Positions 15,228 to 48,565 of a stretch of 64,000 nt of DNA are shown piece after piece. How positions within the stretch are numbered: position 1 is the first letter of the stretch; each line of letters begins with the position of its first letter. The stretch is from an uncultured Nitrospirales bacterium. Its GTDB lineage: Bacteria > Hydrogenedentota > Hydrogenedentia > Hydrogenedentales > GCA-2746185. The notes below the pieces were generated by a model. It saw only the letters and a program-made list of their open reading frames with translations, was not told the origin of the DNA and searched no databases. Position numbers and translations under genes: made by a program. The stretch covers positions 1,498 to 65,497 of the forward strand of contig CAZUJL010000022.1 of NCBI GenBank assembly GCA_964620045.1, given 5' to 3'.

Positions 15228-15241
15228 AGGAAATCCTTGGA

Positions 15242-16954
15242 CTATTGTTCCAATGACGGCAATGCAACGGCACCGTTTGGACGAACCAAAAAGCGTTCGT
15301 GAGCATGCTGAACTGGTGTAACGCGATAACCCCGCAACGGAAGGGCGGGACTGCCACTTACATCTACATATGGCCAGAACAAACCGGACTCACTTTTTGA
15401 GTCTGATACCAACCGGCCTTCGCGATCCGTGGTAGCGATCACTTCACTCAACGGCAATGTGCGTTGCAGGTAGATTGATTTGTCGCCTCGCCGTACAATC
15501 CAGATGATTCCAAGTTGTGGCTGGTCGGTTTGTTTTGGCATGACATAGGATCCATCGGATAGTTCGATGAGCCAACCAATCGTTCCGTCTGGTTTTATAA
15601 GAGGCTGTCTCGCTCTTGCGGATATTGGAAATACCACTTCATCGGCAGGAACGGGCCTTACGCCTTGCGCGTCTCGATACGGCCATATGTCATATTCGAA
15701 AGGCAGTGTTTGGTGCTCGGATTCTTCGAGATCGACAATGCCTGTGGATCGAATCGAGGCATATCGGCCGTTCTCCAATTTGCCACTGTGCTCAAGAACA
15801 AGCTCGTTGTCATCTAAATAAGAAACCAGATAATGAGCGTCGCCGACTTGAACGGTGTCGCGAATACCAACAAGTTCCCCATGTTTTCCTAAATATGCTC
15901 TTGAAAGCAGGTAATTTCGGCTCCAAGAGAGACTGATGATCCCAGGATGCAAGCGCGTTGGCGTTTGCGACATGTATCGTCCGGCGTTCATCCATTTAGC
16001 GACAGGCCGAGGCGGCAAGGCTGCTCCAACTTCGCTAAGACTGGCTACGGCGAAAGCAATGCGGCTCTGTTGGCATGTAGGTTCCACTTCATCCACTAGT
16101 GGCGAGTTGGTGAGGTTGCGTAGATTCATTCCAGCGACGGACGTCGAGTAGATGTCGAAATCGCCAGCGCGATCTGACGCAAACAGGACCGACTGGCCAT
16201 CTGGAGACCAGACTGGATCCCTGTCTTCACCTGGATGATCTGTGATTTGCGTTATCTCGCCCGTAGAAGGATTCAGAATATAGATATCGCCGAAGCCGAG
16301 TGTGTTTCCACGTGCAACAATACGAGTTCCGTCTGGTGACCATGCGGGTTGAGTTAGGAAAACAGATCTCTTTATGGAAATTGGTGTCAGCCCCTCTTTA
16401 TTTGCGTGTGAAAGAACATATGCTCGTTTGCGTTCTTCCATTGATATAGTGAGGGAGGAAACAATCAGCTCAGAAGTCGTTGGGGAAATGGCTGGATCAA
16501 ACACCGGGATTGATGCACTCACCATCAGTAATGGAGCACCACTCGTCAAACTCTGACCCATTACCACTGCATCACGTATGCTTTTGCCCATGGACACGAA
16601 GGCTATACCTCCTCCATCCGGTGTCCAGACGGGCTTTATCTCGTTACTTTCGGCATCTTTCGTAAAACGGCGGTTGTCCGATCCGTCTATGTTCATCAGC
16701 CATATGTCGAAGCCACGGCCATCGTCGCGGGCGTAGGCGATTTGTTTGCCATCGGGGGACCAGGCAGGTTGCTGTACGATGGATTTTCCGTCGGTGAGGC
16801 GGACGCGATTGGTGCCGTCGTCGTTCATGGTGTAGATGTCGTAAACGTACATTTGCTGCGCGGCGGCGAGTTGCGCGAGTTGGGCGTGGGCGCGCGGCAA
16901 CAACGTAGCGGACGCCAGAATCACAAGCGGAAACAAGGATTTGCATAGTCGCAC
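15242..16954 (-). CDS. secreted TolB-like beta-propeller (PD40 repeat) protein with uncharacterised C-terminal domain
   Basis: Signal peptide; repeated WSPDG motifs (PAWSPDGKQIAY, VWTPDGGGIAF, PAWSPDGTRIV, PVWSPDGQSVLFASDRAGDFDIY); C-terminal about 270 aa with no recognised motif, encoded in the low-GC patch. Confidence 0.55.
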   Translation of the reverse strand: MRLCKSLFPLVILASATLLPRAHAQLAQLAAAQQMYVYDIYTMNDDGTNRVRLTDGKSIVQQPAWSPDGKQIAYARDDGRGFDIWLMNIDGSDNRRFTKDAESNEIKPVWTPDGGGIAFVSMGKSIRDAVVMGQSLTSGAPLLMVSASIPVFDPAISPTTSELIVSSLTISMEERKRAYVLSHANKEGLTPISIKRSVFLTQPAWSPDGTRIVARGNTLGFGDIYILNPSTGEITQITDHPGEDRDPVWSPDGQSVLFASDRAGDFDIYSTSVAGMNLRNLTNSPLVDEVEPTCQQSRIAFAVASLSEVGAALPPRPVAKWMNAGRYMSQTPTRLHPGIISLSWSRNYLLSRAYLGKHGELVGIRDTVQVGDAHYLVSYLDDNELVLEHSGKLENGRYASIRSTGIVDLEESEHQTLPFEYDIWPYRDAQGVRPVPADEVVFPISARARQPLIKPDGTIGWLIELSDGSYVMPKQTDQPQLGIIWIVRRGDKSIYLQRTLPLSEVIATTDREGRLVSDSKSESGLFWPYVDVSGSPALPLRGYRVTPVQHAHERFLVRPNGAVALPSLEQ

Positions 16955-24487: not shown

Positions 24488-24575
24488 GCCGTCCCTACGG
24501 GACTGATTGGGTGATGCGGGCATGGACCCCGGCGTTGAAACGCCGGGCTACTATCATCTGCCCCTCCGGGGCAAT
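24488..24575. repeat. structured intergenic repeat element, copy A (three hairpins)
   Basis: Shares cgtccctacgggact (hairpin gtccc-tac-gggac) and a terminal gcccctc(c/t)ggggc hairpin with a second copy at 41470-41558, at nearly identical spacing (69 vs 71 nt); the central hairpin differs in sequence but not in structure (ccccggcg-ttgaaa-cgccgggc here). Confidence 0.5.
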
Positions 24576-28263: not shown

Positions 28264-30281
28264 GCCGCCTCGGGATCGTTTGCACGGTACTCCTCGCCTG
28301 CTTCGCGGGCGCCACGGTGGCGTTTGCGGAAGGCTACGACACCTCCGCGGGCGAATGGCCCACCTACGGCGGCGACCTGTATAGCCACAAGTATTCGCCG
28401 CTGGACCAGATCAACGGGGAGAACTTCTCCAAGCTGCAGGTCGTGTGGCGGTGGAAATCCGCCGACGAATGGATCAGCAAAACGGTATCCGGCGGCGAAT
28501 GGTGGTCGAAGTCCACGCCGGTGTTCGACGACTTACAAAAAGACAATCCCAACCGCTGGCGCGGCGGGCTTGTGCCCCGGCTTGCGGGATTCAAGGCGAC
28601 GCCGCTGATGGTGGGCGGCAAGTTGTACGTCACGACCGCGCTGTACCAAGCGGCGGCGATCGACGCGAAGACCGGCGAGACGCTGTGGGTCTTCAATCCG
28701 AAGAGCTACGAAACCGGCACGCCGACGATGAGCATCTATTGGAACCATCGCGGGGCGGCGTATTGGACGGACGGCACAGACGAGCGCATTTTCTGGGGCA
28801 CGGGCGACGCGTATCTGTGGTGCGTGGATGCGAAGACCGGGCGGCCGTGCGCGGATTTCGGCGACGGCGGCCGCGTGGACATTGCGAAGGATGTGCCGCG
28901 CGCGGAGCGCGACAAGCGCGACTATTTGAACGCGCTGCTGTACTCGTGCGCCTCTCCCCCACTCGTGGTGAACAACGTTGTGATCACGGGGCAGTCGATC
29001 GCCGATCGCCGCGTAGTGAAGGAAGCGCCGCCGGGCTATGTGCGCGGTTGGGATGCGAAGACCGGCGCGTTGAAGTGGACGTTCAACAGCGTGCCGCAGG
29101 CGGGCGAGTTCGGCAACGAGACCTGGGAAAACGGCTCGGCCGAATACTCCGGCAATTCGAATGTGTGGACGCAGATGAGCGCCGACCCGGAACTCGGGCT
29201 GGTGTATTTGCCGACGGGCACGCCGACGAACGACTTTTACGGCGGGCATCGCCTGGGCGATAACCTGTTTGCCGAATGCGTGATCGCGGTGAACGTCGAG
29301 ACCGGCGAGCGCGTGTGGCATTTCCAGACCGTGCACCATGGCCTGTGGGACTACGACAATCCCGCGGCGCCGAACCTTGTGGATATCGTCGTGGACGGCA
29401 AGCCGATCAAGGCCGTCGCGCAGGTGACGAAGCAAGGGTTTGTATTTGCGTTCGATCGCGCGACCGGCAAGCCCATCTGGCCAATTGAAGAGAAGCCGGT
29501 GATTACGGAATCAAACATTCCAGGCGAGCGCCCGGCGGCGACGCAGCCGATGCCGACGAAACCGCTTGCGTTCGAATACCAGGGCGTGAAAGAAGACGAC
29601 CTGATCGACTTTACGCCGGAGCTGCACCAGTTGGCGCTGGACATTGTGAAGGAGTACACGATCGGGCCGCTGTTTACGCCGCCGATGCTGGGCAAGGCGA
29701 CGATCATGCGACCGGGTCTCGGCGGTGGCGCGAACTGGACCGGCGCGGCGGTGGATCCGGAGACGGGCGTCTTGTATGTGCCGTCGGTGGCTGGATACTC
29801 GGTCGTGCATTTCTTCACGCCGGGCGCGGACGTAAACGGGAACCTCGACTATACGCACGGCGCGCGCGGCGGACTGGCGCAGGGCCCCAAGGGCCTGCCG
29901 CTATTCAAACCGCCGTACTCGCGCGTGACGGCGATCGATATGAACACGGGCGAGCACCTGTGGTGGGTGCCGACGGGCAATGGTGACAACGTGCGGAACC
30001 ATCCGGACTTGAAGGCGCTGAACCTGCCGCCGGTGGGTGGCGATGGCGAGACCGGGCCGCTGCTGACGAAGACGGTGCTTGTGATCGGCCTTGCGCCGAC
30101 CGAAGGCGCGCCGACGCTGACCGCGTACGACAAGAAAACCGGCGCGGTGCTGGGTTCAGTCGAGCTGCCCGGCAAACCGGTGAGCACGCCGATGACGTAT
30201 CTCTACGACGGCAAGCAATACATCGCGCTCACCTGCGGCGGAGCGACGCCGGAATTGGTCGCGCTCGCGCTTCCTGAATAG
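28261..30281 (+). CDS. soluble periplasmic PQQ-dependent dehydrogenase (eight-bladed quinoprotein propeller)
   Basis: GTG start at 28261 gives signal peptide VSRLGIVCTVLLACFAGATVAFA (ORF track starts 28218); WPTYGGDLYSHKYSPLDQINGENFSKLQVVWRW N-terminal signature; repeated DAKTG-x-x-W motifs; HHGLWDYD motif as in quinoprotein glucose/alcohol dehydrogenases. Confidence 0.75.
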
Positions 30282-30320
30282 ATCGACAAATCAAAGTCCG
30301 TTCACAGGGGTTTTAATCTC

Positions 30321-31139
30321 ATGACCAGCCCTATCCCTGACTTTTCGGCGTGCAGGGAGCGTATTGACAGGGCAAATAGCAAAGCCCAATTCGTTATAGA
30401 TCAATGGAAATCTCTTCACGAGAACAACCGACCAAAAACATCTCTCAAAGACAAGGGTGACGGACGACATATCATCTGCGTAACATCTCCCAGCATTCCG
30501 TCTAGCCTCGCGCTCGAATTGGGCGAAGTTCTCTATCAAATTCGCGCTGCACTAGATAATGCCGTTTACGCCAGTTGCGTTTGTGATTGCACCAACGACT
30601 TTACCAAGTACGAAAGAGACATTGGATTTCCTGTTTGTGCTACACCCAAATCTTTCAAAGATCGCGTTGAGCACAAATGTTTGGATAAGAAGCGCATTCA
30701 GATTCTTCGAACTATACAACCGTTTTACACCGACAATATGCCGAACGAATTTAAGTTCAGGTGTTACTCTTGGGCCTTTCATGTTCTTAACGAGTGGGCC
30801 AAAATCGATAGGCATCGACGATTGCATGTTCTCACTGCAGCATTCTTTGACCCATCGATAAGCTTTACATTCGGAAAACAGGTTGTCATTGCTAACCCAA
30901 CGCTCTACAAAATTCAGTTTCTGGAAGGTGAAACCGACATAGGGGAATTGACCATCATCAATCCACATGGCACCCCGACGACCATGGATACGGAAACAAA
31001 CTCGATATTCGATATCGAGATTGGGATCAAGGAGCCTCCTTTGCCCTTGGTTCAAGAAGACACGTTGACTCACCGTCTCAACACAATCTTCGAGGCGTCA
31101 AGAGCCATTATCCAAGCCTTTCAAGAAAGCTATTCGTAA
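30321..31139 (+). CDS. hypothetical protein encoded in a low-GC island
   Basis: 272 aa, Cys-containing, no recognisable motif; local GC about 40-45% against about 67% background. Confidence 0.4.
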   Translation: MTSPIPDFSACRERIDRANSKAQFVIDQWKSLHENNRPKTSLKDKGDGRHIICVTSPSIPSSLALELGEVLYQIRAALDNAVYASCVCDCTNDFTKYERDIGFPVCATPKSFKDRVEHKCLDKKRIQILRTIQPFYTDNMPNEFKFRCYSWAFHVLNEWAKIDRHRRLHVLTAAFFDPSISFTFGKQVVIANPTLYKIQFLEGETDIGELTIINPHGTPTTMDTETNSIFDIEIGIKEPPLPLVQEDTLTHRLNTIFEASRAIIQAFQESYS

Positions 31140-31590
31140 AACCAAATCTACATACATTCGCGCAGCGTAACTTCGGACAATCTAGGCAAAAGTCACGCAT
31201 ACAATTCCTCAAAAACCCCTTATTTTTCGCTGAATTCATTCCTCTATCGGATCGCCGAAAGTGTGGTTTTATACGCCTCGGATCGCTATATGTAGTGATC
31301 TGGCAAGAAGAATTTTCAATTCGTAGAAAATAATCGTTGACATGCACAATATGTTGTGTTATAAAGGTCGCGGTGTCAGGGGGTGACACAGCAGGGGGAC
31401 CGGACGGCGTTCACATCTCTCCACAGCCCAGCAGCGTGGACGCACCAACGGACGGTAATTGGCTCTGCAACGAGTTTGACGGAACGCGGTGACCGCAGCC
31501 CACCCGCCCCGTCGTTTGTAGCTCGGACCCGTGCCTAGCGCCAGGTATACGGAGTTACACCCATAGACACACCCCGCAATGTACGGGCGG

Positions 31591-31632
31591 TGGGTTTCGA
31601 CCCACCGCCCCGTCTCTTTTTAGGGCGCAGGA
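31591..31632 (+). terminator. strong intrinsic terminator-like hairpin with no upstream ORF
   Basis: Perfect 11-bp stem gggcggtgggt / acccaccgccc with loop ttcg, followed by cgtctcttttt; nearest upstream plus-strand CDS ends 450 nt away. Confidence 0.5.
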
Positions 31633-31725
31633 TTGAACTCCCGCGAGGGGGTGTATAGACTACGGCCCTTCCAGTGGGCCGCATTTCGCGGGTTTTTTCT
31701 TAATTTTTGGGCCTTGTCCTCATTC

Positions 31726-32862
31726 ATGAAAATTTTTGTTCCGAGAGAGACCTTTCCGGGCGAAACCCGGGTGGCGCTGCTTCCCGCGACGGTCAAAAAG
31801 CTCGTGGGCGTCGGCGCGGAGGTATCCATTGAGCCCGGCCTTGGGCGCATCATCGGGATTGAGGATGCGGCGTACACCGAGGTGGGCGCGACGCTGAGCG
31901 ATGCCACCGCGGGCCTGGGCAACGCGGACATCGTGGTGCGCCTGCGCCGGCCGGCGGCCGGTGATATCGCGCAGATGCGCGAGGGCGCCGTGGTTGTTGG
32001 CCTGCTCGACCCCTTCACGAATGCGGACGGGCTGCGCGCGCTGGCCGCGCGGAAGATCTCCGCGATTTCGATGGAAATGATTCCGCGCACGACGCTGGCG
32101 CAGAAAATGGACGTGCTCAGCTCGCAGGCAAACCTGGCGGGGTATGTGGCCGTGATTCTGGCGGCCGAGCGGCTGGATAAAGTGCTGCCGATGATGATGA
32201 CGCCGGCGGGCACGATCTCGCCGTCGAAGGTGTTCATCATCGGCGTCGGCGTGGCGGGTCTGCAGGCGATCGCGACGGCGCGGCGGCTTGGCGCGCGCGT
32301 GGAAGCATTCGACACGCGGCCGGTGGTGGAAGAACAGGTGCAATCGCTCGGCGCGAAGTTCGTGAAGATTGATCTCGGCGAGACCGGCCAGACGGCGCAG
32401 GGCTACGCCAAAGAACTCACGCCGGAACAGCAGGCCATGCAGCGCGCGGGCATGGCAAAGGCGTGCGCGCAGGCGGATATTGTGATCACGACGGCGCAGT
32501 TGTTCGGCAAACCCGCGCCGCGATTGGTGACGGCGGAGATGATCGCCGGCATGAAGCCGGGCAGCGTGGTCGTGGACCTCGCGGTCGAGAGCGGTGGCAA
32601 TGTCGAAGGCTCGAAGCTCGACGAAGAAGTGCTTGTGAACGGCGTGCGCATCATCGGCCTTGGAAATCTTCCGGGGCATGTGGCGTCGGTGGCGAGCCAG
32701 ATGTACTCCGCGAACGTCGGCAGCTTGATCGAACATTTCTGGGACAAGACCGAGAAGCGCCTGCAGCTCAAGCTGGACGACGACATCATGAAGGGCGCGC
32801 TGGTGACGCACGGCGGCGAAATCGTGAATCCGATGCTGAAGGAACGCGTGGGCGCGGCCTGA
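31726..32862 (+). CDS. pntAA: NAD(P) transhydrogenase alpha subunit, part 1 (dI domain; alanine-dehydrogenase-like fold)
   Basis: Start at MKIFVPRETFPGETRVALLP (ORF track begins 31633); SAISMEMIPRTTLAQKMDVLSSQANLAGY ... VFIIGVGVAGLQAIATARRLGARVEAFDTRP closely matches PntA dI; no pntAB or pntB follows in this window. Confidence 0.75.
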   Translation: MKIFVPRETFPGETRVALLPATVKKLVGVGAEVSIEPGLGRIIGIEDAAYTEVGATLSDATAGLGNADIVVRLRRPAAGDIAQMREGAVVVGLLDPFTNADGLRALAARKISAISMEMIPRTTLAQKMDVLSSQANLAGYVAVILAAERLDKVLPMMMTPAGTISPSKVFIIGVGVAGLQAIATARRLGARVEAFDTRPVVEEQVQSLGAKFVKIDLGETGQTAQGYAKELTPEQQAMQRAGMAKACAQADIVITTAQLFGKPAPRLVTAEMIAGMKPGSVVVDLAVESGGNVEGSKLDEEVLVNGVRIIGLGNLPGHVASVASQMYSANVGSLIEHFWDKTEKRLQLKLDDDIMKGALVTHGGEIVNPMLKERVGAA

Positions 32863-39720: not shown

Positions 39721-39840
39721 CTCCATCCCGTTCCAAAACCGCTGACGCCCGGTGTGTGTGCACACACGGGCCGGCTGGCCGTAACTCCGGCGCATTGCGT
39801 CGCCGCGCGGCCCAGCCTGGACTTCAACAGGAGCCATACC

Positions 39841-40809
39841 ATGAACACAAGACGCCCGAGCCGTGGGTTTACGTTAATTGAATTGCTGGTGGTCATCGCG
39901 ATCATCGGGATACTTGCCGCTATTCTTTTGCCGGCGCTGGCGCGGGCACGCGAGGCGGCGCGCCGCGCGAGTTGCGCGAACAACCTGAAGCAGATCGGAT
40001 TGTCCCTGAAGATGTATGCGAGTGAGACACAGGGCGAGCGCTTTCCGCATATCAAGACGACCAATTGCTTTCCGGAAATCCACGAGACGTATGTGTGGAT
40101 GTTCGATGTGCAAGCGATGTACCCCGAGTATCTGCCGGACCTGAACGCGCTGGTGTGCCCCAGTTCGTTTGGCGGCGCGGATGCGGTCGCGCGGTGGGAC
40201 GAGGGCGATCAGGAAAGCCCCGAGTGGGAGGAAGTGAACAATCCGCCGCTGGGTGTGTCGCACGACGGCATTGTGACCGGGTGCGAGGTGGTCGACCATC
40301 CGTATTACTACTACGGCTGGGCGTTCCATCGGGATATGTTCAAGAGCACGACGGACTTTACGACGCTGGAAGATGTGCTGGTGTTTGAGTTCAACGAGGA
40401 GTACAAGCCGGCGTTCGACGTGGACAATTACGAGGCCGTGCGGCAGTTTGTCGACAGCGATCTGGAACTGGAAACGGCGCCGGATACCTTCGGAGAGATT
40501 GATGGTCGCGACTACATCGCGCGGTTGCGCGAAGGCATTGAGCGCATCTTTATCACGGACATCAATAATCCAGGGGCATCGGCACAGGCGCAGTCGAATA
40601 TTGTGGTAATGCACGATGCGATTTCGCCGGAGCCGGAGCATTTCAACCATGTGCCCGGCGGCACGAATGTGTTGTACCTAGATGGGCACGTGGATTTTAC
40701 GAAATGGATTCCCTCGCCGGAGAGCCTGGGCGGGCCGTTCCCGGTGAACGGGGCGGGGTTGATCCTGCACGAAGTGCCGGAGGAACTGGCGGGCACGCAC
40801 ACGCATTAA
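39841..40809 (+). CDS. prepilin-type pilin-like protein (tandem paralogue of 38389..39366)
   Basis: ATG 39841 ([62 protein letters not shown], near-identical to the upstream paralogue); C-terminal [16 protein letters not shown]. Confidence 0.7.
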
Positions 40810-41469: not shown

Positions 41470-41558
41470 TCGTCCCTACGGGACTTGATGCCGAGGTCGC
41501 TATCGGCATACCCACCGCTGAAGCGGTGGGCTAAATTCTGTCGCCCCTCTGGGGCTCA
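41470..41558. repeat. structured intergenic repeat element, copy B (three hairpins)
   Basis: cgtccctacgggact ... cccaccgc-tgaa-gcggtggg ... gcccctctggggc; same architecture and spacing as copy A at 24488-24575; followed at 41581-41619 by a 16-nt direct repeat containing the 12-bp palindrome gcaatgcattgc. Confidence 0.5.
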
Positions 41559-41649: not shown

Positions 41650-42222
41650 TTAGCCTTTTAACTTCTGAATCATCTCGGCGACGCGTTTGCCGATGGCTTC
41701 CACGCTGGCCTGCTGCTGGGCATCCTTGAGTTTGGGGCCGTCGAAGGCTTCGTGCGCCTTCATGACGGCGACCTGATCCGGCAGCACGAGCGTCTGGATA
41801 TTTCCCAGGATCGAGCGTACGGTCACGAGGCCGCGCAGGCCGCCGAGCGCGCCGGGCGACGCGCTCATGAGTCCGGCTACTTTGCCGACGTAGGCCTCCA
41901 ACGGCTTCTCGGCCCCTTCGCGGCGCGAGGCCCAGTCGATCGCGTTTTTCAGGAGCGGCGTGATTGAACTGTTGTACTCCGGCGCGGAGATCAGGAAGCC
42001 GTCGTGCGACTTCATGAGTTCCTTAAAGGTCTTCGCATTCGGCGGGAGGCCACTGCGTGCTTCGTCGTCTTCGTTGTACAGCGGCAAGGGTAAGGCATTC
42101 CAATCGACGAGCGTTACCGTGGCGCCGGCGTTGCGCGCGCCGTCGGCGGCGATTTTCACAAGGCGCGTGTTAAACGAATCGAGCCGGGCGCTGCCGGAGA
42201 ACGCGAGAATTTTCGGGGTCAT
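41650..42222 (-). CDS. NADPH-dependent FMN reductase-family flavoprotein
   Basis: 190 aa; MTPKILAFSGSARLDSFNTRL ... FLISAPEYNSSITPLLKNAIDW typical of NADPH-dependent FMN reductases. Confidence 0.75.
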   Translation of the reverse strand: MTPKILAFSGSARLDSFNTRLVKIAADGARNAGATVTLVDWNALPLPLYNEDDEARSGLPPNAKTFKELMKSHDGFLISAPEYNSSITPLLKNAIDWASRREGAEKPLEAYVGKVAGLMSASPGALGGLRGLVTVRSILGNIQTLVLPDQVAVMKAHEAFDGPKLKDAQQQASVEAIGKRVAEMIQKLKG

Positions 42223-42243: not shown

Positions 42244-43035
42244 TTACTGCGTGATGATCTGCGGCTGACCGTCGGGCACGCAGAGATACTGATCGAAATC
42301 CGTGTAACCGATGCCGCGCAGGAAGTCTTCGTCGATGAGGGCCTCGCCGTTGGATTTATCGGGATGCTGCACGATTTCCCAGGTGGCATCGGCCAGGATA
42401 TCGGCCTTGCGCCAGAGGGTCGGATCGCCGAGCTTCCAGTTGATCGTGGCGAAGGACTCGATGAGCGTCTTCGGCCAGAGGGCGGTCGCACGGATGTTGT
42501 ACTCGCCGAATTCCTGCGGCAGGCCGTGCGCGATCATCGTCATGCCGAATTTGCTGATGCAATAGCCGATGTGGCTGGGGAGCATCCGCAGATCGATCGG
42601 CGGCGACATGAGTACGACGTGGCCGGACTTTTGCGCCTTCATCGCGGGCAGAAAGGCCGTGGTGACGGCGAAGGAGCCGCGCGCGTTCACGTCCATCATC
42701 AGGTCGAAGCGCTTCATGGGCGTTTCGTCCATGGGCTTCCACCAGAGCGCGCCGGCGTTGTTGATCACGACGTCAACCCGGCCGAATTTTTCGAGCGTGG
42801 CCTTGGCCGCTTGTTCGACGCTTTGCAGATCGGTCACGTCGCAGCGAACCGGGAAGGCCTCGGTGCCGTGGCGGGAAATTTCGTCGGCCGCGCTGAAGAT
42901 CGTGCCGGGGAGCTTCGGGTTTTCCTCGGTGCTTTTCGCCGCGACGACAATGTCGTAGCCTTCGCGCGCGAAACGATGCGCGCAGGCCTTGCCGATGCCG
43001 CGGGACGCGCCGGTGATGAATGCCACTTTTCTCAT
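42244..43035 (-). CDS. short-chain dehydrogenase/reductase (SDR)
   Basis: Start MRKVAFITGASRGIGKA at 43035 (the ORF-track 535-aa frame runs through from the upstream gene); NNAG ... catalytic YxxxK (YCISK). Confidence 0.75.
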   Translation of the reverse strand: MRKVAFITGASRGIGKACAHRFAREGYDIVVAAKSTEENPKLPGTIFSAADEISRHGTEAFPVRCDVTDLQSVEQAAKATLEKFGRVDVVINNAGALWWKPMDETPMKRFDLMMDVNARGSFAVTTAFLPAMKAQKSGHVVLMSPPIDLRMLPSHIGYCISKFGMTMIAHGLPQEFGEYNIRATALWPKTLIESFATINWKLGDPTLWRKADILADATWEIVQHPDKSNGEALIDEDFLRGIGYTDFDQYLCVPDGQPQIITQ

Positions 43036-43919
43036 TGCGTTGCCTCCTTCGGCGCAGCGGCCGGGGCTTTGGACTGCATCGCGGCGGCGACCTTGGCGAT
43101 CGCCGCGCGCACATCGGCTTCGGCGTTCCACGGCACCCAGTGGCTCTTGCCGTCCAGCCGCATCACGTCCACGATGGTACCAGCCGGGAACTCGCGACGC
43201 ATGTAGTCTACATTCGAATGCGGCACCAATATATCGTCTGGCGCGTGCACGATCACGATCGGACAATGCAGTTCCTTGAGGCGCGGCTGCATGGCTTCGA
43301 GTTCGGCCTTCATCGGCCGGAGTTCGCGGTCGGAATTCCGCAGAAAATACGGGACCATATAGGGAACAAAGGCGAAACCCACCACGTGCTGGTACCACGC
43401 GATTTTTTCCAGAGACGGGTCGAGGGAGCCGGAGAGGATGACGAGGCCGCCGACGCGATCGGGGTATTGCAGGGCGGCCTCGACGATGATGGGACCGCCG
43501 AGCGAGTGGCCGACGAGAATCGTGCCGCGGCCGCCGCGGTTTACGAGCAGCGGTTCGAGGCACTGCGCCTGTTCTTCCATCGTGTAGACCGGCTTGCGCG
43601 GCGTTGTGTGCCCGAAGCCGGGTCGATCGACCGAGACGGAGTCGAAGCCCGCGATGGGCGACGTGAGGTAATCCTCGAAGGCGGTGGCGTCGCCCGGCGT
43701 GCCGTGGACGTACAGAATGCGCGGCAACTGATTGGCGTCGGGCATGGGCGCGGCGATGTAGCTCATCGTGAAACCGTTGGACGACGGCACGGTGCCGCGG
43801 ATGAGGCCGGCGTTTTCCATCGGCAACACGAAGGCGTCGTATACGCGGCATGAGGCAAATTCGAGCACAAGCAGGACGATGAGCGTGATGCCGAGGATGC
43901 GGAAAATCTTACGGCGCAT
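43032..43919 (-). CDS. alpha/beta-fold hydrolase
   Basis: N-terminal TM anchor; nucleophile elbow GHSLGG; overlaps SDR gene start by 4 nt. Confidence 0.65.
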   Translation of the reverse strand: MRRKIFRILGITLIVLLVLEFASCRVYDAFVLPMENAGLIRGTVPSSNGFTMSYIAAPMPDANQLPRILYVHGTPGDATAFEDYLTSPIAGFDSVSVDRPGFGHTTPRKPVYTMEEQAQCLEPLLVNRGGRGTILVGHSLGGPIIVEAALQYPDRVGGLVILSGSLDPSLEKIAWYQHVVGFAFVPYMVPYFLRNSDRELRPMKAELEAMQPRLKELHCPIVIVHAPDDILVPHSNVDYMRREFPAGTIVDVMRLDGKSHWVPWNAEADVRAAIAKVAAAMQSKAPAAAPKEATQ

Positions 43920-43925
43920 AACGGG

Positions 43926-44750
43926 TCAACCGGTGCCGAGCTCCGTGAGGCCGAGCACCTGTTCGCGCGCCTGCGCGGCGAGGACTTTGCGGTCGGTCTC
44001 GCCTGGCGGGATGGGCTCGCCGAACACGACCACCACGCTGACGCCGCGCAGCCCAAGCACGCGCCAGAGGTGCGGCACGAGCGTGTGATCGTCGCGCCAA
44101 TAGGCGATGTCTTCCGTGAGCGAGGCGTTCGGCGCGGTCACGCCCCAACGCAGACCCACGGGCAGCAGCGGCACGGCGCGATTGATGGCGGGCTGCACGA
44201 GAGAGGCGTGAAACGGCATGACGCGATCGCCGGCGCTGGTGGTGCCTTCCAAGAACACGCAGACCGGCACGCCGGCATCGAAACGTTCGCCGATTTTTTC
44301 GTTGACGGCGGCGACGCTGCGGCGATCGGCGCGCGCAATGCCGATGTGTTCGGAAGTGTTGAACAAGTGCCCGATGATGGGCCAATGCACGACGTCCGCT
44401 TTGGAGACGAACATCGTTGCGGTGACGGCACCGACGGCCATGATGTCGAGATAACTGATGTGGTTCGGCGTGAGCAGCACGGCCTGGTGCGGCGGCATGC
44501 CGGCGGAGGTGACGGAGATGCCGCCGATCCGCGCGATGCCCACGAGCCAGCGGTGGGTGTACTCCGCGGCGAAGCGACGGCGTTCAGCTGGGTCGCGCGT
44601 GGAGAAACGCGCGCGCAGGTGGATGAGGTGCGAGTAGAGCGTCCAACCGCCGATGAGAAAGAGTCGCCACGCGGACAGCGCGTGGTTGATGCGGGCGCGC
44701 GGCATGGTTTCTTCACTGCCGTCCGCGTGCGCGGGCGTGGTTGCACTCAT
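43926..44750 (-). CDS. lysophospholipid/lyso-aminolipid acyltransferase (PlsC family; OlsA-like)
   Basis: NHISYLD (HxxxxD acyltransferase motif) and FLEGTTS (FPEGTRS-like); overlaps the upstream GNAT gene by 4 nt. Confidence 0.7.
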   Translation of the reverse strand: MSATTPAHADGSEETMPRARINHALSAWRLFLIGGWTLYSHLIHLRARFSTRDPAERRRFAAEYTHRWLVGIARIGGISVTSAGMPPHQAVLLTPNHISYLDIMAVGAVTATMFVSKADVVHWPIIGHLFNTSEHIGIARADRRSVAAVNEKIGERFDAGVPVCVFLEGTTSAGDRVMPFHASLVQPAINRAVPLLPVGLRWGVTAPNASLTEDIAYWRDDHTLVPHLWRVLGLRGVSVVVVFGEPIPPGETDRKVLAAQAREQVLGLTELGTG

Positions 44751-45589
44751 TCGATCACGTCCAACCGCGAGAGCGCGACGCCCTTGCCGTCCATCTGGAT
44801 CAGGAAATCGACCGTGCCGAATTCGCGGTCGATTGCGGGTTCGGAGACAACGAGCGCGCCGAGTTTCAGGTAGGTGCGGAAGAGTTTTGGGATTTTAAGC
44901 GCCGGACCGAGCTTCGGATCGTGCTCGCGCGCGGCGTCGCCACAGGAGCGATCCGGTTGCGCCCGTAGCCAGAGATCCGGGTGCAGGCATTTCGCCTCGC
45001 GCAGGGTCTTCAGCGCACGCCAGCCGTCGTCGGGGTCCTGCGTGGTCAGCGAGCAGCAGCCGAAGAGGTAGCGCAGGTTGTGCGCGTTCATGTAGGCGCC
45101 GATGCCGAGCCACATGGCGATCATCGCCCGGAAATTGCGGTGATCGGCGGCGAGACAGGCGCGTCCGACTTCGACGCTTTCTTCCAGGAACGGCGCCATT
45201 GGCGCGAGATCGTATTGCTCGGCCGAGTAAATGCCGCCGTTGCGCGAGGCTTCGCCGGCGGATTGCAGGCGGTAGGTGCCGACGATGCGCCCGGTTTGTT
45301 GCTCCATGAGGACGAGGTGCGTCATTTGATCGTCGTAACGATCTGCGTCGAGCCCGGTTTCCATGGAGGATGCGAGGCCTTCTTCGAGTTCGATATTGAA
45401 CACAAGAAAGCGCAAGCGCTGGGCGGCTTCGACGCACTTCGTGGAATTGGCGAACCCGGCGACGTAGCGATCGGTGTCGCCGTGCGGCAGCGCGAGAAAA
45501 TCTACCGTGCCCCAGCGATCGCGGAAGTCTGCGGCACCTTCGAACGGCGCGCGCGTCAGCGCCTGATCACCGTGTTCGACCCGTGCCAT
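44747..45589 (-). CDS. GNAT-fold N-acyltransferase of the OlsB/hemolysin-like family
   Basis: 280 aa; family size, and translational coupling to a PlsC-type acyltransferase, mirror the olsB-olsA ornithine-lipid operon; assignment relies partly on context. Confidence 0.5.
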   Translation of the reverse strand: MARVEHGDQALTRAPFEGAADFRDRWGTVDFLALPHGDTDRYVAGFANSTKCVEAAQRLRFLVFNIELEEGLASSMETGLDADRYDDQMTHLVLMEQQTGRIVGTYRLQSAGEASRNGGIYSAEQYDLAPMAPFLEESVEVGRACLAADHRNFRAMIAMWLGIGAYMNAHNLRYLFGCCSLTTQDPDDGWRALKTLREAKCLHPDLWLRAQPDRSCGDAAREHDPKLGPALKIPKLFRTYLKLGALVVSEPAIDREFGTVDFLIQMDGKGVALSRLDVIE

Positions 45590-45603: not shown

Positions 45604-47253
45604 TTACCCCGCGATGGGGTAGTTCCGCGACAAACGCCGATAGAGTAACACATCTTTAATGAACTGTAACGGACCCAGCGGCGCGTGGCCCGCGCGACGA
45701 TTCGCGTCGCCGATCACGAACAACACCTTGTACTGGTCGAACAACGTGCGGTAGGCGTCGAGCAGGCGCGCTTCGGGGTCCCAAATGTGCGTGGCCTCGG
45801 CGCCCGCGCCGTTCACTTCCACAATCATGAATCCCTCGCCCCGCTGCAAAGATTCAACGTCGCGGAAGCGGATGTCGAACCGGCCGAAGAAAAAGCGCGG
45901 CAGGCCGTGGGCGATCTCGTCTATTCGGGCCGAGAGCGCGGGCGTCAGCAGGTGCAGGCCGTCGCGGAAAATGCAGCCCTGAGCGTGGTTTCCGGCAAAG
46001 ACCAGCGGGAAGCGCTCGCCGATGGTGAGGACGCGATCGAGCGAGGCGGCGTGGCGTTTGAAATAGACTTCGGAGACGAGCTTTGCGCGATCGTCCGCTT
46101 CGATCAGCTCGCGCAGCGTGCGTTCACCGTCGCCGACGACGAAGGGAAACTCCTTGAGCGTCACCGAGACGATGCGACCGCGCTGCTCGGAGGGCAAGCG
46201 GTAATACATCAGGCCGACTTCGTGCTTGAAGGGCGCGAGCGTCTGCAACACGATTGTGATGCCGCGCGGCATGGTTTCAAAATACGCGCGCAGATCGTGT
46301 GCGGTGTAAATCGGCCGCACACCGGCGCCGCGCTGGCCCTGATCGGGTTTCGCGACGATCGGCAGGACGAGCCCGGCAGCGGAAACCACGGCGAGTGCGG
46401 CTTCGACGTGTTCGTCGAGCGAACCTTGCGCGGTGAAGTGATACGTCGTGTGTGGCGCGAACCAGCGGCGCTCGGATTCGGGGACGAGATCGAGGATCTG
46501 GCTTTTTGATTCGCGGATCATGCCGCCGGAGTAGATGGAGGGGTTGACGGCGGTGGGCAGCGTGAGGCTGCGGAAACGAACAGCGAGCCAGAAGTAATAG
46601 AGTCCGACCGGGATGTAAAACAAGAAGGGATGCCAGAACTCGAACATCGACGCGGGGGCTTCTTCGGCGGTGACGCTTGCGGGGTCCTCGGCCATGCGTT
46701 TGTACGAGCGGCGCTGGATAAGGATGACGACGACGATGAGCGCGGCGCCGACGGCCCATTTCAGCTCGCCGAGCAGCGGAAGAATCGCGCGCCCGAGATA
46801 CACGATCGACGTGACCGCGGTGAACGTCCACAACATGGACGCGAAGATGGCACAGGGAAGGTAGCGCTTGAGGCTGGCGCGCGCCATGCCGACGGCGAGG
46901 TTCGCGGGCAGGCGCAGGCCGGGCACGAAACGCGAGACCATGATCGCGGTGAACATATTGTCGTCGAACCACACGCGCATGCGCTCGAGGCGGTGCTTGG
47001 ACACGAGCTTACGCTTGACGATCCACGGCTCCAGGTAGCGTCCGGCGACGTAGAGCAGCCAGTCCCCCACGCCGATGCCGATACAGAGGCCGGCGATCGC
47101 GGTTTCGTAGAGCATCTGATCGTCGGCGACGAGCAAAGCGCACGCGATCAGTGTCGGGTCTTCCAGCACGAAGGTGCACAGCATGATGACGATGACTTGC
47201 AGAAAGGGATCGCTGGAGAGCGCGCGCAGGGCGGAATCGAAATAGGCTTCCAC
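45604..47253 (-). CDS. membrane protein: DedA/VTT-type N-terminal domain fused to a C-terminal ATP-grasp-like domain
   Basis: GTG 47253 (1 nt after the upstream stop) or ATG 47186; N-terminal TM region with FVPGLRLP DedA-like motif; C-terminal 330 aa with PIVAKPDQGQRGAGVRPI resembling the ATP-grasp nucleotide-binding loop. Confidence 0.45.
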   Translation of the reverse strand: MEAYFDSALRALSSDPFLQVIVIMLCTFVLEDPTLIACALLVADDQMLYETAIAGLCIGIGVGDWLLYVAGRYLEPWIVKRKLVSKHRLERMRVWFDDNMFTAIMVSRFVPGLRLPANLAVGMARASLKRYLPCAIFASMLWTFTAVTSIVYLGRAILPLLGELKWAVGAALIVVVILIQRRSYKRMAEDPASVTAEEAPASMFEFWHPFLFYIPVGLYYFWLAVRFRSLTLPTAVNPSIYSGGMIRESKSQILDLVPESERRWFAPHTTYHFTAQGSLDEHVEAALAVVSAAGLVLPIVAKPDQGQRGAGVRPIYTAHDLRAYFETMPRGITIVLQTLAPFKHEVGLMYYRLPSEQRGRIVSVTLKEFPFVVGDGERTLRELIEADDRAKLVSEVYFKRHAASLDRVLTIGERFPLVFAGNHAQGCIFRDGLHLLTPALSARIDEIAHGLPRFFFGRFDIRFRDVESLQRGEGFMIVEVNGAGAEATHIWDPEARLLDAYRTLFDQYKVLFVIGDANRRAGHAPLGPLQFIKDVLLYRRLSRNYPIAG

Positions 47254-47254
47254 G

Positions 47255-48019
47255 TCAGCGCGCCTGGGCCGGCGCCGCAAGCAGACGCAGCGAGCAATGC
47301 GTGGCGGCGTCGCGCGTTTCGGGCGTGGGCGTCGGCCAGTAGCGCAGCTCGACCCGGCCCGGGTTCGCATGCACACGCGCCTGCGTGATGCTGCGCGTGG
47401 CGGACCATTCGCGCCGCATCAAGGGCGAGCGTTCCGCGTGGCCGGCTTCCTGGAGCAAATGAAACGCCGGCAGGGTGTCGATGTGCGCAGCGCCGTCCGC
47501 GATCCAGCGATTGAACCGTTCCTCGCGCCAGCGCACGACTTCGGCGCTGTCCCAACCCGAGGACGAGCGCACCAGCCATGGATCGCGATTCGTAATCGTG
47601 GTGAGCGAACCTTTGCCGAGCCATTCACAGATCAATGTTTGATCCAGTGACGCGACGAGCAAGGTGAACGATGGATACTGCGCGGCGTCCAGTTCCGATT
47701 TAATCCAGTGCTGCGCAGCATCGCCATCGCCGGCGGCGAGCACGGCGGGAACGATTTCGCCGCGCGTGCGATAGCGGCCCGTCGTATCCGGCAGCAGGCT
47801 TTCGCCGGGCTGATAGGCGTTCATAATGCAGGCGACCACGCCGCAGGCGTTGGCCCCCATCCAGGTGCCGCCTTTTTCGCTGTCGATGGGCGCGACCCAA
47901 TCGCCGTTGGCGGCCGCGTGCAGTTCAGGCTTTCGTTCCGGCGCGCGGGAATAAGCCTCGTCGCGGTTCATCGTCGCGGTGAACCCGGAGCCGGTGCGTT
48001 GGATGGTCACCGTACACAT
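47255..48019 (-). CDS. NRDE/TANGO2-family protein
   Basis: MCTVTIQRTG start (Cys2) and MNRDEAYSRAP (NRDE motif) as in the PF05742 family. Confidence 0.55.
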   Translation of the reverse strand: MCTVTIQRTGSGFTATMNRDEAYSRAPERKPELHAAANGDWVAPIDSEKGGTWMGANACGVVACIMNAYQPGESLLPDTTGRYRTRGEIVPAVLAAGDGDAAQHWIKSELDAAQYPSFTLLVASLDQTLICEWLGKGSLTTITNRDPWLVRSSSGWDSAEVVRWREERFNRWIADGAAHIDTLPAFHLLQEAGHAERSPLMRREWSATRSITQARVHANPGRVELRYWPTPTPETRDAATHCSLRLLAAPAQAR

Positions 48020-48040: not shown

Positions 48041-48565
48041 TTAGCGGACCGCCGTCTGCCGGAAGGCGGCCGTCGAAAAGGCCAGCGCGAGGTCTTCGGG
48101 AAGGTCGACCCCCTGTTCGCGACAGAGATTTCGGACCACGGCGAGATGGTGGATCGTGTGGCTCGACAGAAACACAAGTTCACGCTCGACCGTCGATTCC
48201 AGGGTGCTCGGCTCGCTGTCGAGCGCGGCCGTCTGGCGCACGGTGATGCGCTGGCGCAACTGGTCTGGGGTCAGCGTCGAAAGGGTGCGGCAAACGTTCG
48301 CCAGGGCCTCGCGAAAACAGGCCGGATCGCGCTCGATGGATTCATCGCGATCGCGCGCGTCGTAATCCACCACGCCATCGCCCAGTCCGCGCAAGAAGCA
48401 GATGAAGTGTTCGGCGGCGTGCCGCAGGTGCGCGCCGATGGGCGAGCGTCCCGGTGCGGCGGTGGCAAACATCTCGAAGGAAATGGCGTCGACAATCCGT
48501 TCACATCTGCCGCAGGCATCGATACATCCGCGAACTGCGGGACTGACAGACGGTGTCATTTGCAT
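48041..48565 (-). CDS. DinB/YfiT-like (DinB_2 superfamily) putative metal-dependent protein
   Basis: Start at MQMTP (48565; ORF track to 48700); His triad context HLRHAAEHF ... HTIHHLA. Confidence 0.4.
   Translation of the reverse strand: MQMTPSVSPAVRGCIDACGRCERIVDAISFEMFATAAPGRSPIGAHLRHAAEHFICFLRGLGDGVVDYDARDRDESIERDPACFREALANVCRTLSTLTPDQLRQRITVRQTAALDSEPSTLESTVERELVFLSSHTIHHLAVVRNLCREQGVDLPEDLALAFSTAAFRQTAVR

Follow-up and report, generated by a model that had tools for sequence, protein, structure and literature searches.

A DedA membrane domain fused to an ATP-grasp ligase in a widespread, unannotated and aminolipid-associated gene module

What would a single polypeptide that joins a DedA-type membrane domain to an ATP-dependent ligase be doing beside genes for aminolipid acyltransferases? 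The question is raised by a 64,000-nucleotide stretch of contig CAZUJL010000022.1 (hereafter the window; assembly GCA_964620045.1, from an uncultured Nitrospirales bacterium that GTDB places in the Hydrogenedentota), in which a gene on the minus strand (45604..47253) encodes a 549-aa protein of this composition between a homologue of TANGO2 and OlsB- and OlsA-like acyltransferases. We find that the protein is a widespread, unannotated variant of known parts, namely an ATP-grasp ligase with a membrane anchor and, as a rule, a fused DedA domain, which belongs to a conserved, TANGO2-containing and aminolipid-associated gene module. It is likely that the protein acts as an active ligase within an aminolipid pathway. 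The narrower proposal, that it would use ATP to form an amide bond on the head group of an aminolipid, at the cytoplasmic face of the membrane and coupled to flipping by the DedA domain, is one for which we judge the chances to be about even. A literature search found no paper tying DedA proteins to ATP-grasp domains, ornithine lipids or aminolipids, nor olsB to DedA, and no characterised DedA protein described as fused to a ligase.

Whether the two halves truly form one protein is the first matter to be settled. The gene is an intact open reading frame (ORF) that opens with GTG and closes with a stop codon at 45604-45606, and its GTG lies 1 nt past the TGA of the TANGO2 gene (junction sequence ...cgcTGAcGTGgaagcc...). 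This spacing, which the initial annotation of the window had noted from the letters and ORFs alone, is confirmed, and elsewhere TANGO2 is even fused to the same polypeptide. The longest ORF begins upstream at 47376 and would give a protein of 590 aa; this alternative start was rejected, as 32 of 32 aligned homologues begin at the GTG position and the longer version would overlap the 3' end of the TANGO2 gene. The GTG is preferred because of these 32 homologues and because a 100% identical 549-aa gene call is present in public assemblies. The identical protein is found on several independent public contigs, where it has the same neighbours. Searching a whole database with the fusion protein returned 1375 proteins at E<=0.001, and the 120 homologues listed are 541-572 aa long and cover 97-100% of the query. 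A frameshift or assembly artefact, by which the fusion would have resolved into two genes, was rejected on the strength of these near-full-length homologues, the identical protein on independent contigs, and the fact that the fusion is the commonest architecture of its family.

The size of that family was estimated with phmmer, by comparing the C-terminal 350 residues with 1.84 billion cluster representatives (50% identity clusters). Matches numbered 2780 at E<=1e-3, of which 1088 reached E<=1e-30. Among the best 150 representatives, 84 carry the DedA and ATP-grasp domains together, which makes the fusion the commonest architecture; 49 consist of a helix and the ATP-grasp domain only, five have a partial DedA domain, and 12 are longer. 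The combination that had appeared unfamiliar at first sight is therefore real, but it is not rare: it represents a large family that has gone unannotated. Public names among the 120 listed homologues are 'VTT domain-containing protein', 'DedA family protein' and 'membrane protein DedA', while the stand-alone ligases carry the label 'hypothetical protein' or the mistaken one of 'D-alanine--D-alanine ligase'. With each GTDB species represented by one genome, a scan recovered relatives in 318 species, from which 79 loci were kept for gene context; their genomes are labelled Hydrogenedentota, Sumerlaeota, Nitrospirales, Acidobacteriota, Myxococcota, Desulfobacterota, Planctomycetota, Lentisphaerales, Burkholderiales and Sphingomonadales, among others. 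The closest genome-resolved relative, at 76% identity, comes from a metagenome-assembled genome (MAG) of the Hydrogenedentales. The halves are encoded by two genes in Burkholderiales, Sphingomonadales, Paracoccus and Vibrionaceae. Those of the Burkholderiales are genuine adjacent genes, about one third of them in the same frame, as expected by chance, and in Ideonella alba they overlap by ATGA. When a stand-alone sphingomonad homologue served as the query, the named matches among those listed were only sphingomonad-like. Homologues with 38% identity over 96% of the domain were also found by a tblastn search of plasmids in Komagataeibacter (Acetobacteraceae).

The N-terminal part of the protein (residues 1-190; 46684..47253, minus strand) is a DedA/VTT membrane domain, as the initial annotation had claimed, identified by its Pfam match, its invariant columns and a helical bundle in the AlphaFold2 model. 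VTT_dom matches residues 52-149 with 60.6 bits, above the gathering threshold of 33.9. The charged residues E31, D32, D64, R108 and R114 are invariant and embedded in the membrane, and the motif SRFVPGLRLP, with invariant R108, P111, G112 and R114, shows the RF.PG.R signature of DedA proteins. The FVPGLRLP string singled out earlier occupies residues 109-116, and the Lys/Gly-rich, ATP-grasp-type motif noted together with it, PIVAKPDQGQRGAGVRPI, occupies residues 298-315 of the same 549-aa protein. The scores against the NCBIfam equivalogs of DedA type fall far short of their cut-offs (UptA NF052604, 33.6 against 250; NF052605, 21.2 against 300; PRK10847, 25.4 against 236).

The identity of the C-terminal part (residues 229-549; 45607..46569, minus strand) was less readily seen. 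A Pfam scan of the fusion protein at E<=0.01 gave VTT_dom as the sole match and no ATP-grasp model, and a relative (P0457) scored 20.1 bits for ATP-grasp_3, under the cut-off of 23.2. NCBIfam returned weak matches to cyanophycin synthetases at residues 284-389, which missed the equivalog cut-offs (TIGR02068, 21.5 against 850 bits; PRK14016, 20.5 against 877 bits) and concerned the ATP-grasp segment only. Against the PDB, the single sequence found the cyanophycin synthetase CphA2 (8fxh) with E 5e-5, and a profile of 33 homologues found the same structure with E 7e-7 over positions 283-485, from the VAKP strand through the E-I-N motif. An alignment-based AlphaFold2 model (mean predicted local distance difference test score, pLDDT, 85.8) gave 237 Foldseek matches in the PDB at E<=0.001, the best with E 6.8e-9 and probability 1.00. 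The best 50 of the 237 are all ATP-grasp proteins (CphA1/2, GshAB, D-Ala-D-Ala and D-Ala-D-Lac ligases, biotin carboxylase and carbamoyl-phosphate synthetase), and cyanophycin synthetases lead the list. Domain search together with structure prediction thus bears out the ATP-grasp fold claimed for the C-terminal half, with three subdomains over about 320 residues, in spite of the missing Pfam match.

The catalytic signature of the fold is likewise intact. Across 33 sequences from several phyla, V300-A-K302-P303-D-x-G306-x-R308-G309-x-G311-V312, with the ATP-binding Lys on a β-strand and a flexible Gly-rich loop after it, is invariant and aligns to VAVKPVAGHKGIGV of CphA2; in the same 33 sequences R458, D460, E479 and N481 are invariant, corresponding to the catalytic Arg, the Mg2+-ligating acid and the E-x-N motif, and VEINGAG of the fusion aligns with IIEINAAPG of CphA2. 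In addition to these general features there is a motif specific to the family after the juxtamembrane helix, LPTAANPSIYSGG.I.ESKS.IL, and the string AEATHIWD, also in the ATP-grasp domain. Judged by sequence and predicted structure, the C-terminal domain is an active-looking ATP-grasp ligase that stands outside every curated family model.

Between the two domains lies a segment (46570..46683, minus strand), delimited by pLDDT, secondary structure and conservation, that consists of an acidic linker and a hydrophobic juxtamembrane helix. The linker is acidic and of low confidence in the AlphaFold2 model at residues 189-197. The helix, FEFW(H/P)P..LFY.PV..YY.WLA(L), is conserved at residues ~204-228 directly before the ATP-grasp domain, and it also begins the stand-alone ATP-grasp forms. 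In one relative (P0454), the FEFW helix follows immediately on a soluble DinB-like domain, and no other transmembrane segment is present. Because of this arrangement the helix is probably a monotopic or interfacial membrane anchor rather than a full span, a topology that would keep the ATP-grasp domain at the cytoplasmic face of the membrane.

What ties the ligase to aminolipids is its genomic surroundings. ORFs of the kept loci were searched with the proteins that neighbour the fusion gene in the window, and statistics were taken on the 43 loci whose flanks reach 3 kb or more in both directions. Of these, 36 (84%) have an OlsB or OlsF gene at a distance of no more than 5 kb, 26 (60%) a DinB-like gene, 19 (44%) an α/β-hydrolase, 16 (37%) OlsA and 15 (35%) TANGO2. 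The adjacency to OlsB/OlsF spans Hydrogenedentota, Sumerlaeota, Acidobacteriota, Desulfobacterota, Burkholderiales and others, and takes two forms. The order DinB-TANGO2-fusion-OlsB-OlsA-hydrolase(-SDR), where SDR is a short-chain dehydrogenase, is kept in Hydrogenedentota, Sumerlaeota, 'Nitrospirales' MAGs and some Acidobacteriota, while an OlsF-type bifunctional synthase of ~610-670 aa (Acyltransf_2 plus Acetyltransf_5) is the neighbour in many Acidobacteriota as well as in a Desulfobulbaceae MAG and a Geobacter genome. In Burkholderiales, the DedA and ATP-grasp genes are adjacent and often overlap, with the hydrolase upstream, the OlsB-like gene divergent and DinB downstream. A typical genome has, by our estimate, one or two OlsB/OlsF-type synthase genes in several megabases. 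An adjacency of 84% to so few genes, achieved with two different synthase architectures, is strong evidence for a pathway shared with aminolipid synthesis, and the co-occurrence with olsB that the initial annotation had proposed to look for is borne out. The functional unit pictured at that time was right in its link to ols genes but too small, as DinB/YfiT-like, TANGO2, α/β-hydrolase and often SDR genes also belong to it.

Natural fusions delimit this larger unit further. Six proteins (P0438, P0442, P0457, P0497, P0498 and P0510) combine α/β-hydrolase, DedA and ATP-grasp domains; P0460, of 1121 aa (L083 1790-5155), reads TANGO2-hydrolase-DedA-ATP-grasp; and P0454 has a DinB-like domain fused to the ATP-grasp domain. 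The loci repeat the pattern at the level of genes, the P0460 locus having DinB upstream and OlsF in divergent orientation, and that of P0438 having DinB-like and TANGO2 genes upstream. These longer fusion proteins are decisive in defining membership of the module. In another of them, P0373 (773 aa), a domain of ~400 aa is fused to the ATP-grasp domain. Separately, sphingomonads have a ~418-aa protein without Pfam match, equivalent to the extra domain of P0373, between their DedA and ATP-grasp genes (L080 6695-7951; L063; L074), and a gene of the TMEM164 family (PF14808; L083 7436-8209) stands directly beside the OlsF gene at the locus of the quadruple fusion.

In the window itself, eight co-directional genes on the minus strand follow one another with gaps of -4 to 21 nt, and the OlsB-like, DinB-like, TANGO2 and α/β-hydrolase members of the module are all present. 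The first encodes a DinB/YfiT-fold protein of 174 aa (48041..48565; Pfam DinB_2, 28 bits, with AlphaFold2 and Foldseek support), the second the TANGO2/NRDE homologue of 254 aa (47255..48019; Pfam TANGO2, 56.9 bits), with a Met-Cys N-terminus and an NRDE motif, and the third the fusion protein. An OlsB-like N-acyltransferase of the GNAT type (280 aa; 44747..45589) and an OlsA-like O-acyltransferase of the PlsC type (274 aa; 43926..44750), whose gene overlaps the olsB-like stop by 4 nt, come next. Both had been noticed at the outset and are upheld by Pfam (Acetyltransf_5, 94.7 bits; Acyltransferase, 69.3 bits), while their NCBIfam scores lie below the equivalog cut-offs (OlsB, 133.4 against 350; OlsA, 121.7 against 300). 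The same holds for the cluster-linked OlsB/OlsF proteins of eight other loci (L002, L013, L021, L023, L027, L076, L077 and L081), which for example score 418 against 620. By their sequences, the OlsB and OlsA neighbours are aminolipid-synthase-like at the Pfam level, and all those of the OlsB, OlsA and OlsF type that accompany the module may represent subfamilies of their own that differ in their specificity for the amino acid. The operon continues with an α/β-hydrolase (S33-like by Pfam, 295 aa; 43032..43919) that has an N-terminal signal-anchor or lipoprotein-like segment, an SDR (263 aa; 42244..43035) whose gene overlaps the hydrolase stop by 4 nt and which has counterparts beside the module in the closest relatives and Salinivibrio, and, 21 nt downstream of the SDR, an NADPH-dependent flavin mononucleotide (FMN) reductase (190 aa; 41650..42222). 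This last co-directional gene is only a possible member of the functional module. A consensus scan of the operon for promoters and terminators gave nothing above the shuffled background, and tRNA and Rfam scans gave nothing bearing on the fusion gene.

The partner proteins can be described at different levels of certainty. The DinB-like gene is present in 50 of 82 loci and is, after OlsB/F, the most constant partner of the ATP-grasp gene. A sequence profile of its product found no match in the PDB, and the fold was settled by AlphaFold2 and Foldseek alone: the model (pLDDT 94.6) is a DinB/YfiT four-helix bundle whose best matches are YfiT (1rxq) and DR0053 (6iz2), with mycothiol and bacillithiol S-transferases lower in the list. 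Its His residues, a Y-D-x-R motif and an R-E...H..HH motif are invariant. Characterised members of the DinB/YfiT fold are thiol S-transferases or hydrolases. For the TANGO2 homologue, the Met-Cys start and the NRDE motif, together with the paper on the crystal structure of human TANGO2 (2026), point to a putative Cys N-terminal-nucleophile (Ntn) hydrolase; that paper argues for a Cys-Ntn hydrolase acting on fatty-acid derivatives, of which the substrate is unknown. Gene context suggests N-acyl-amino-acid lipids as candidate substrates of the bacterial homologue. The α/β-hydrolase begins with positive charge followed by one hydrophobic segment, and in P0460 a transmembrane segment after an Arg-rich stretch separates the TANGO2 domain from the hydrolase domain. 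On these grounds, the hydrolase is predicted to face the periplasm and TANGO2 the cytoplasm.

Some further features of the loci and the window were recorded alongside the module. Secreted YHS-domain proteins (26 loci) and DoxX-like membrane proteins (25 loci) adjoin it in a group of loci (L057-L082; e.g., L081 2957-3352 and 7524-7976) from Burkholderiales, Sphingomonadales, Geobacter and Myxococcota. MsrB, di-haem peroxidase, NDH-2-like and AhpC/redoxin genes are occasionally found beside it, none of them in the window. These recurrent neighbours may indicate a connection with redox or metal stress. The window contains two copies of the Acido-Lenti-1 RNA (Rfam RF01687), at 41511-41556 (+) and 24528-24573 (+), with 56.7 and 43.2 bits against a gathering threshold of 37; one copy lies on the strand opposite to the operon, ~95 nt past the 3' end of its last gene. 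On the plus strand, 39754-40809 encodes a protein with the prepilin-type N-terminal methylation motif FTLIELLVV, which presumably resembles the DUF1559 family; that family is abundant in Planctomycetota-like genomes. Two stretches are low in G+C (14001-16000, 0.494; 30001-32000, 0.532) relative to ~0.62 elsewhere, and the former contains two large secreted-looking proteins, an Asp/Gly-rich repeat protein (13245-15227) and a second one (15242-16954) with a resemblance to β-propellers judged by eye only.

How might these parts work together? The fusion would be a bifunctional inner-membrane protein in which the conserved hydrophobic helix holds a cytoplasmic ATP-grasp domain at the membrane surface. 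There, ATP would convert a carboxylate into an acyl-phosphate, which would then be joined to an amine. The likeliest substrate, assigned from gene context and by analogy, would be the acyloxyacyl or lyso amino-acid lipid delivered by the adjacent OlsB and OlsA. An aminolipid carboxylate is favoured because the closest relatives of the catalytic domain phosphorylate the α-carboxylates of amino acids or peptides, and an N-acyl amino-acid lipid offers such a group at the membrane; with its free α-carboxylate, such a lipid resembles the C-terminus of a peptide, the kind of substrate on which the structurally closest proteins act. The reaction would lengthen the head group of the aminolipid by an amino acid or an amine, examples being ornithine-taurine and Ser-Gly lipids, and the fused DedA domain would move substrate or product across the bilayer, following a logic like that of MprF. 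TANGO2, as a cytoplasmic amidase-like protein, the DinB/YfiT metalloprotein and the periplasm-facing hydrolase would presumably trim, remodel or recycle the lipid. Reactions of this class have gaps that such an enzyme could fill. According to a 2026 review of ornithine lipids, the transfer of taurine to the carboxyl of ornithine lipid, which yields cerilipin, depends on ATP but has no known gene. The terms 'transport', 'flip' and 'translocat' are absent from this review. In the review literature of 2024-2026, glycine lipid is described as the intermediate from which Ser-Gly lipid is made, with GlsB and GlsA alone named for that pathway, and Orn-Ser-Gly lipids exist. ATP-dependent amidation of an aminolipid head group is thus an inference, one with which all of the evidence agrees.

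Several observations nonetheless weigh against head-group amidation. Seven of the 43 complete loci have no OlsB/OlsF within the flanks examined. The module on plasmid 1 of Paracoccus denitrificans PD1222 (L088 8911-11602) has no OlsB/OlsF within the flanks examined and consists of an ATP-grasp gene annotated 'hypothetical' (PDEN_RS24485), a hydrolase (RS25810) and a VTT protein (RS24475). Adjacent OlsB/OlsF genes are likewise missing from Salinivibrio kushneri, where the order is SDR-DedA-ATP-grasp-DinB-NRDE (L090 6535-10435) and the public label 'D-alanine--D-alanine ligase' on the ATP-grasp protein is probably wrong, and from the flanks examined around the fused form of Azospirillum. Such modules weaken an obligate link to aminolipids without removing it. 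The plasmid copies of Komagataeibacter adjoin no module gene, and this carrier of the Acetobacteraceae homologue lacks the module context for a link to cerilipin. The OlsB/OlsF scores below the equivalog cut-offs leave the amino acid of the lipid unspecified, the roles of DinB, TANGO2, hydrolase and SDR are unexplained by the head-group model, and the YHS, DoxX and redox neighbours hint at a stress- or thiol-related function outside it. Finally, ornithine-lipid synthase genes occur in an estimated half or so of bacteria, and because of this the co-occurrence of genes at the level of genomes says little; only adjacency is informative.

Other explanations of the locus have to be set beside this one. 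Instead of an amino-acid carboxylate, the ligase might activate a fatty acid for the repair or re-acylation of lipids, with the acyl-phosphate ligated as an amide or ester to a lyso-aminolipid or to the free amine of the lipid, and with DedA retrieving the lyso-lipid or fatty acid released by the hydrolase, a salvage like that of LplT-Aas. VanA-type ATP-grasp ligases can form esters; a periplasm-facing hydrolase and an Ntn amidase-like TANGO2 could yield lyso-lipids and free fatty acids, and the Burkholderiales clusters have OlsB and the hydrolase but no OlsA. Moreover, ATP-grasp enzymes that N-acylate histidine with fatty acids have been cited for Legionella, and an α/β-hydrolase serves as the O-acyltransferase in the OlsH/OlsI pathway. 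An OlsI-type role for the hydrolase of the window seems unlikely, as its predicted periplasmic site would hardly allow the use of acyl-acyl carrier protein (acyl-ACP). The closest relatives of the ligase (CphA, GshAB and Ddl) activate amino-acid or peptide α-carboxylates, O-acylation is already covered by OlsA or OlsF in the window and in many loci, and the many invariant polar residues would suit a polar head-group pocket better than an acyl chain; fatty-acid activation is unlikely. A ligase acting on some other envelope lipid, such as phosphatidylglycerol (PG), phosphatidylethanolamine (PE), undecaprenyl phosphate or a lipid A precursor, would make the adjacency to ols genes a matter of co-regulation under envelope or phosphate stress. 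PG, PE and undecaprenyl phosphate have no carboxylate, which would leave them only the chemistry of an amine acceptor, and co-regulation alone does not easily explain synthase adjacency across distant phyla and in two non-orthologous architectures. This makes another lipid a rather unlikely target, even with the undecaprenyl-phosphate transporter UptA as the best NCBIfam match of DedA type (far under its cut-off), with modules in Paracoccus, Salinivibrio and Azospirillum that have no adjacent OlsB/OlsF, and with ornithine-lipid genes described in a review as stress-induced.

The product might also be a soluble small molecule, a dipeptide or amino-acid conjugate that is possibly related to thiols and is either a head-group precursor to be N-acylated by OlsB or a compound exported by DedA. 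Ergothioneine synthesis uses the same logic of ligase, DinB-domain enzyme and Ntn hydrolase, glutathione and D-Ala-D-Ala ligases are among the fold relatives, the DinB/YfiT fold includes bacillithiol and mycothiol S-transferases, and YHS, DoxX, MsrB, redoxin and NDH-2-like genes recur in the proteobacterial loci. What renders a soluble product improbable is that the catalytic domain is always membrane-anchored, with or without DedA, and that the N-terminal substrate domain, a usual feature of soluble ATP-grasp ligases, is reduced and has a membrane helix before it. DedA proteins are linked to the transport of lipids and are not known for that of small molecules, and the redox neighbours are sporadic and absent from the window. 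As for an artefact of assembly or annotation, or a catalytically dead ATP-grasp domain with a regulatory role, the separate halves in Burkholderiales, Sphingomonadales, Paracoccus and Vibrionaceae would speak for it; this idea is effectively refuted, and its residual probability very slight, given the identical 549-aa protein on several independent contigs, the fusion in 84 of the best 150 representatives and the invariance of all catalytic ATP-grasp residues.

If head-group amidation in an aminolipid pathway is retained as the preferred reading, its consequences reach beyond this locus. A membrane-anchored ATP-grasp domain locked genetically to OlsBA or OlsF is a concrete candidate for a class of head-group-extending enzymes, and the fusion of DedA to an enzyme with aminolipid links points to a substrate for DedA. 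Bacterial TANGO2, translationally coupled here and fused elsewhere to lipid enzymes and a VTT domain, has a human counterpart that is a disease gene. Tentatively, and with considerable doubt, the whole module may be seen as a previously unrecognised machine that builds, flips and remodels aminolipids with amide-linked, extended head groups, comprising a cerilipin-type class of ATP-grasp enzymes (by analogy also for Ser-Gly and Orn-Ser-Gly lipids), the first candidate aminolipid flippase, and a TANGO2 acting on N-acyl-amino-acid lipids. If this view of the module is true, bacteria would provide an experimentally accessible model in which to seek the substrates of human TANGO2 and those of proteins with a VTT domain such as TMEM41B/VMP1. 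Three open problems become testable in this way, namely ATP-dependent head-group addition, aminolipid transport by DedA, and the substrate of TANGO2. Experiments are feasible in cultured, tractable carriers (Paracoccus denitrificans PD1222, Salinivibrio, Azospirillum, Ideonella alba and Blastomonas natatoria).

Known systems supply precedents for each half of the protein. For the ligase, the best match in both profile and fold is the G domain of CphA1/CphA2 (7ta5, 8fxh, 7lg5 and 7wac). Common to both are the VxKP strand, the Gly-rich loop and the Mg site of D/E-x-N type. The chemistry of CphA, in which a peptide-like α-carboxylate is converted to an acyl-phosphate and an amino acid is added, is that proposed for the fusion. 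CphA also has a Mur-ligase domain and an N domain. In contrast, the fusion, at 18-21% identity, shows no match to the rest of the synthetase, is membrane-anchored and fused to DedA, and implies no polymer primer. For the membrane half, E. coli YqjA/DedA, B. subtilis UptA and TMEM41B/VMP1 share the RF.PG.R motif and the acidic and basic residues within the membrane. Members of this group are implicated in proton-coupled flipping or scrambling of lipids, and to our knowledge substrates are known for only a few DedA proteins. The fusion differs from them in its additional C-terminal enzyme domain and in scores far from the UptA and DedA equivalog cut-offs.

For the combination of both halves, two systems serve as analogies, and a third as a parallel in chemistry. 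MprF is a lysyl-phosphatidylglycerol synthase fused to a flippase, and so unites in one polypeptide, as proposed for the fusion, a cytoplasmic head-group-modifying enzyme and a lipid-translocating membrane domain. In both cases a membrane lipid would gain a group of the amino-acid type, although this is analogy and not homology: the folds are unrelated, and MprF uses aminoacyl-tRNA to form an ester on PG, whereas the fusion would use ATP and make an amide. In LplT-Aas, a lipid flippase is coupled, and sometimes fused, to an ATP-dependent acyl-activating enzyme, but the transporter belongs to the major facilitator superfamily, the enzyme is adenylate-forming, the substrate is lyso-PE, and the intermediate is acyl-AMP/ACP instead of the acyl-phosphate proposed for the fusion. 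The closest parallel in reaction class is the taurine:ornithine-lipid ligation of Gluconobacter cerinus that gives cerilipin, an ATP-dependent amidation of an α-carboxyl as would be expected of an ATP-grasp enzyme encoded beside olsBA. The comparison is by description of the reaction only and not by sequence; within the Acetobacteraceae, a homologue of the ATP-grasp domain of the fusion is found in Komagataeibacter, outside the context of the module.

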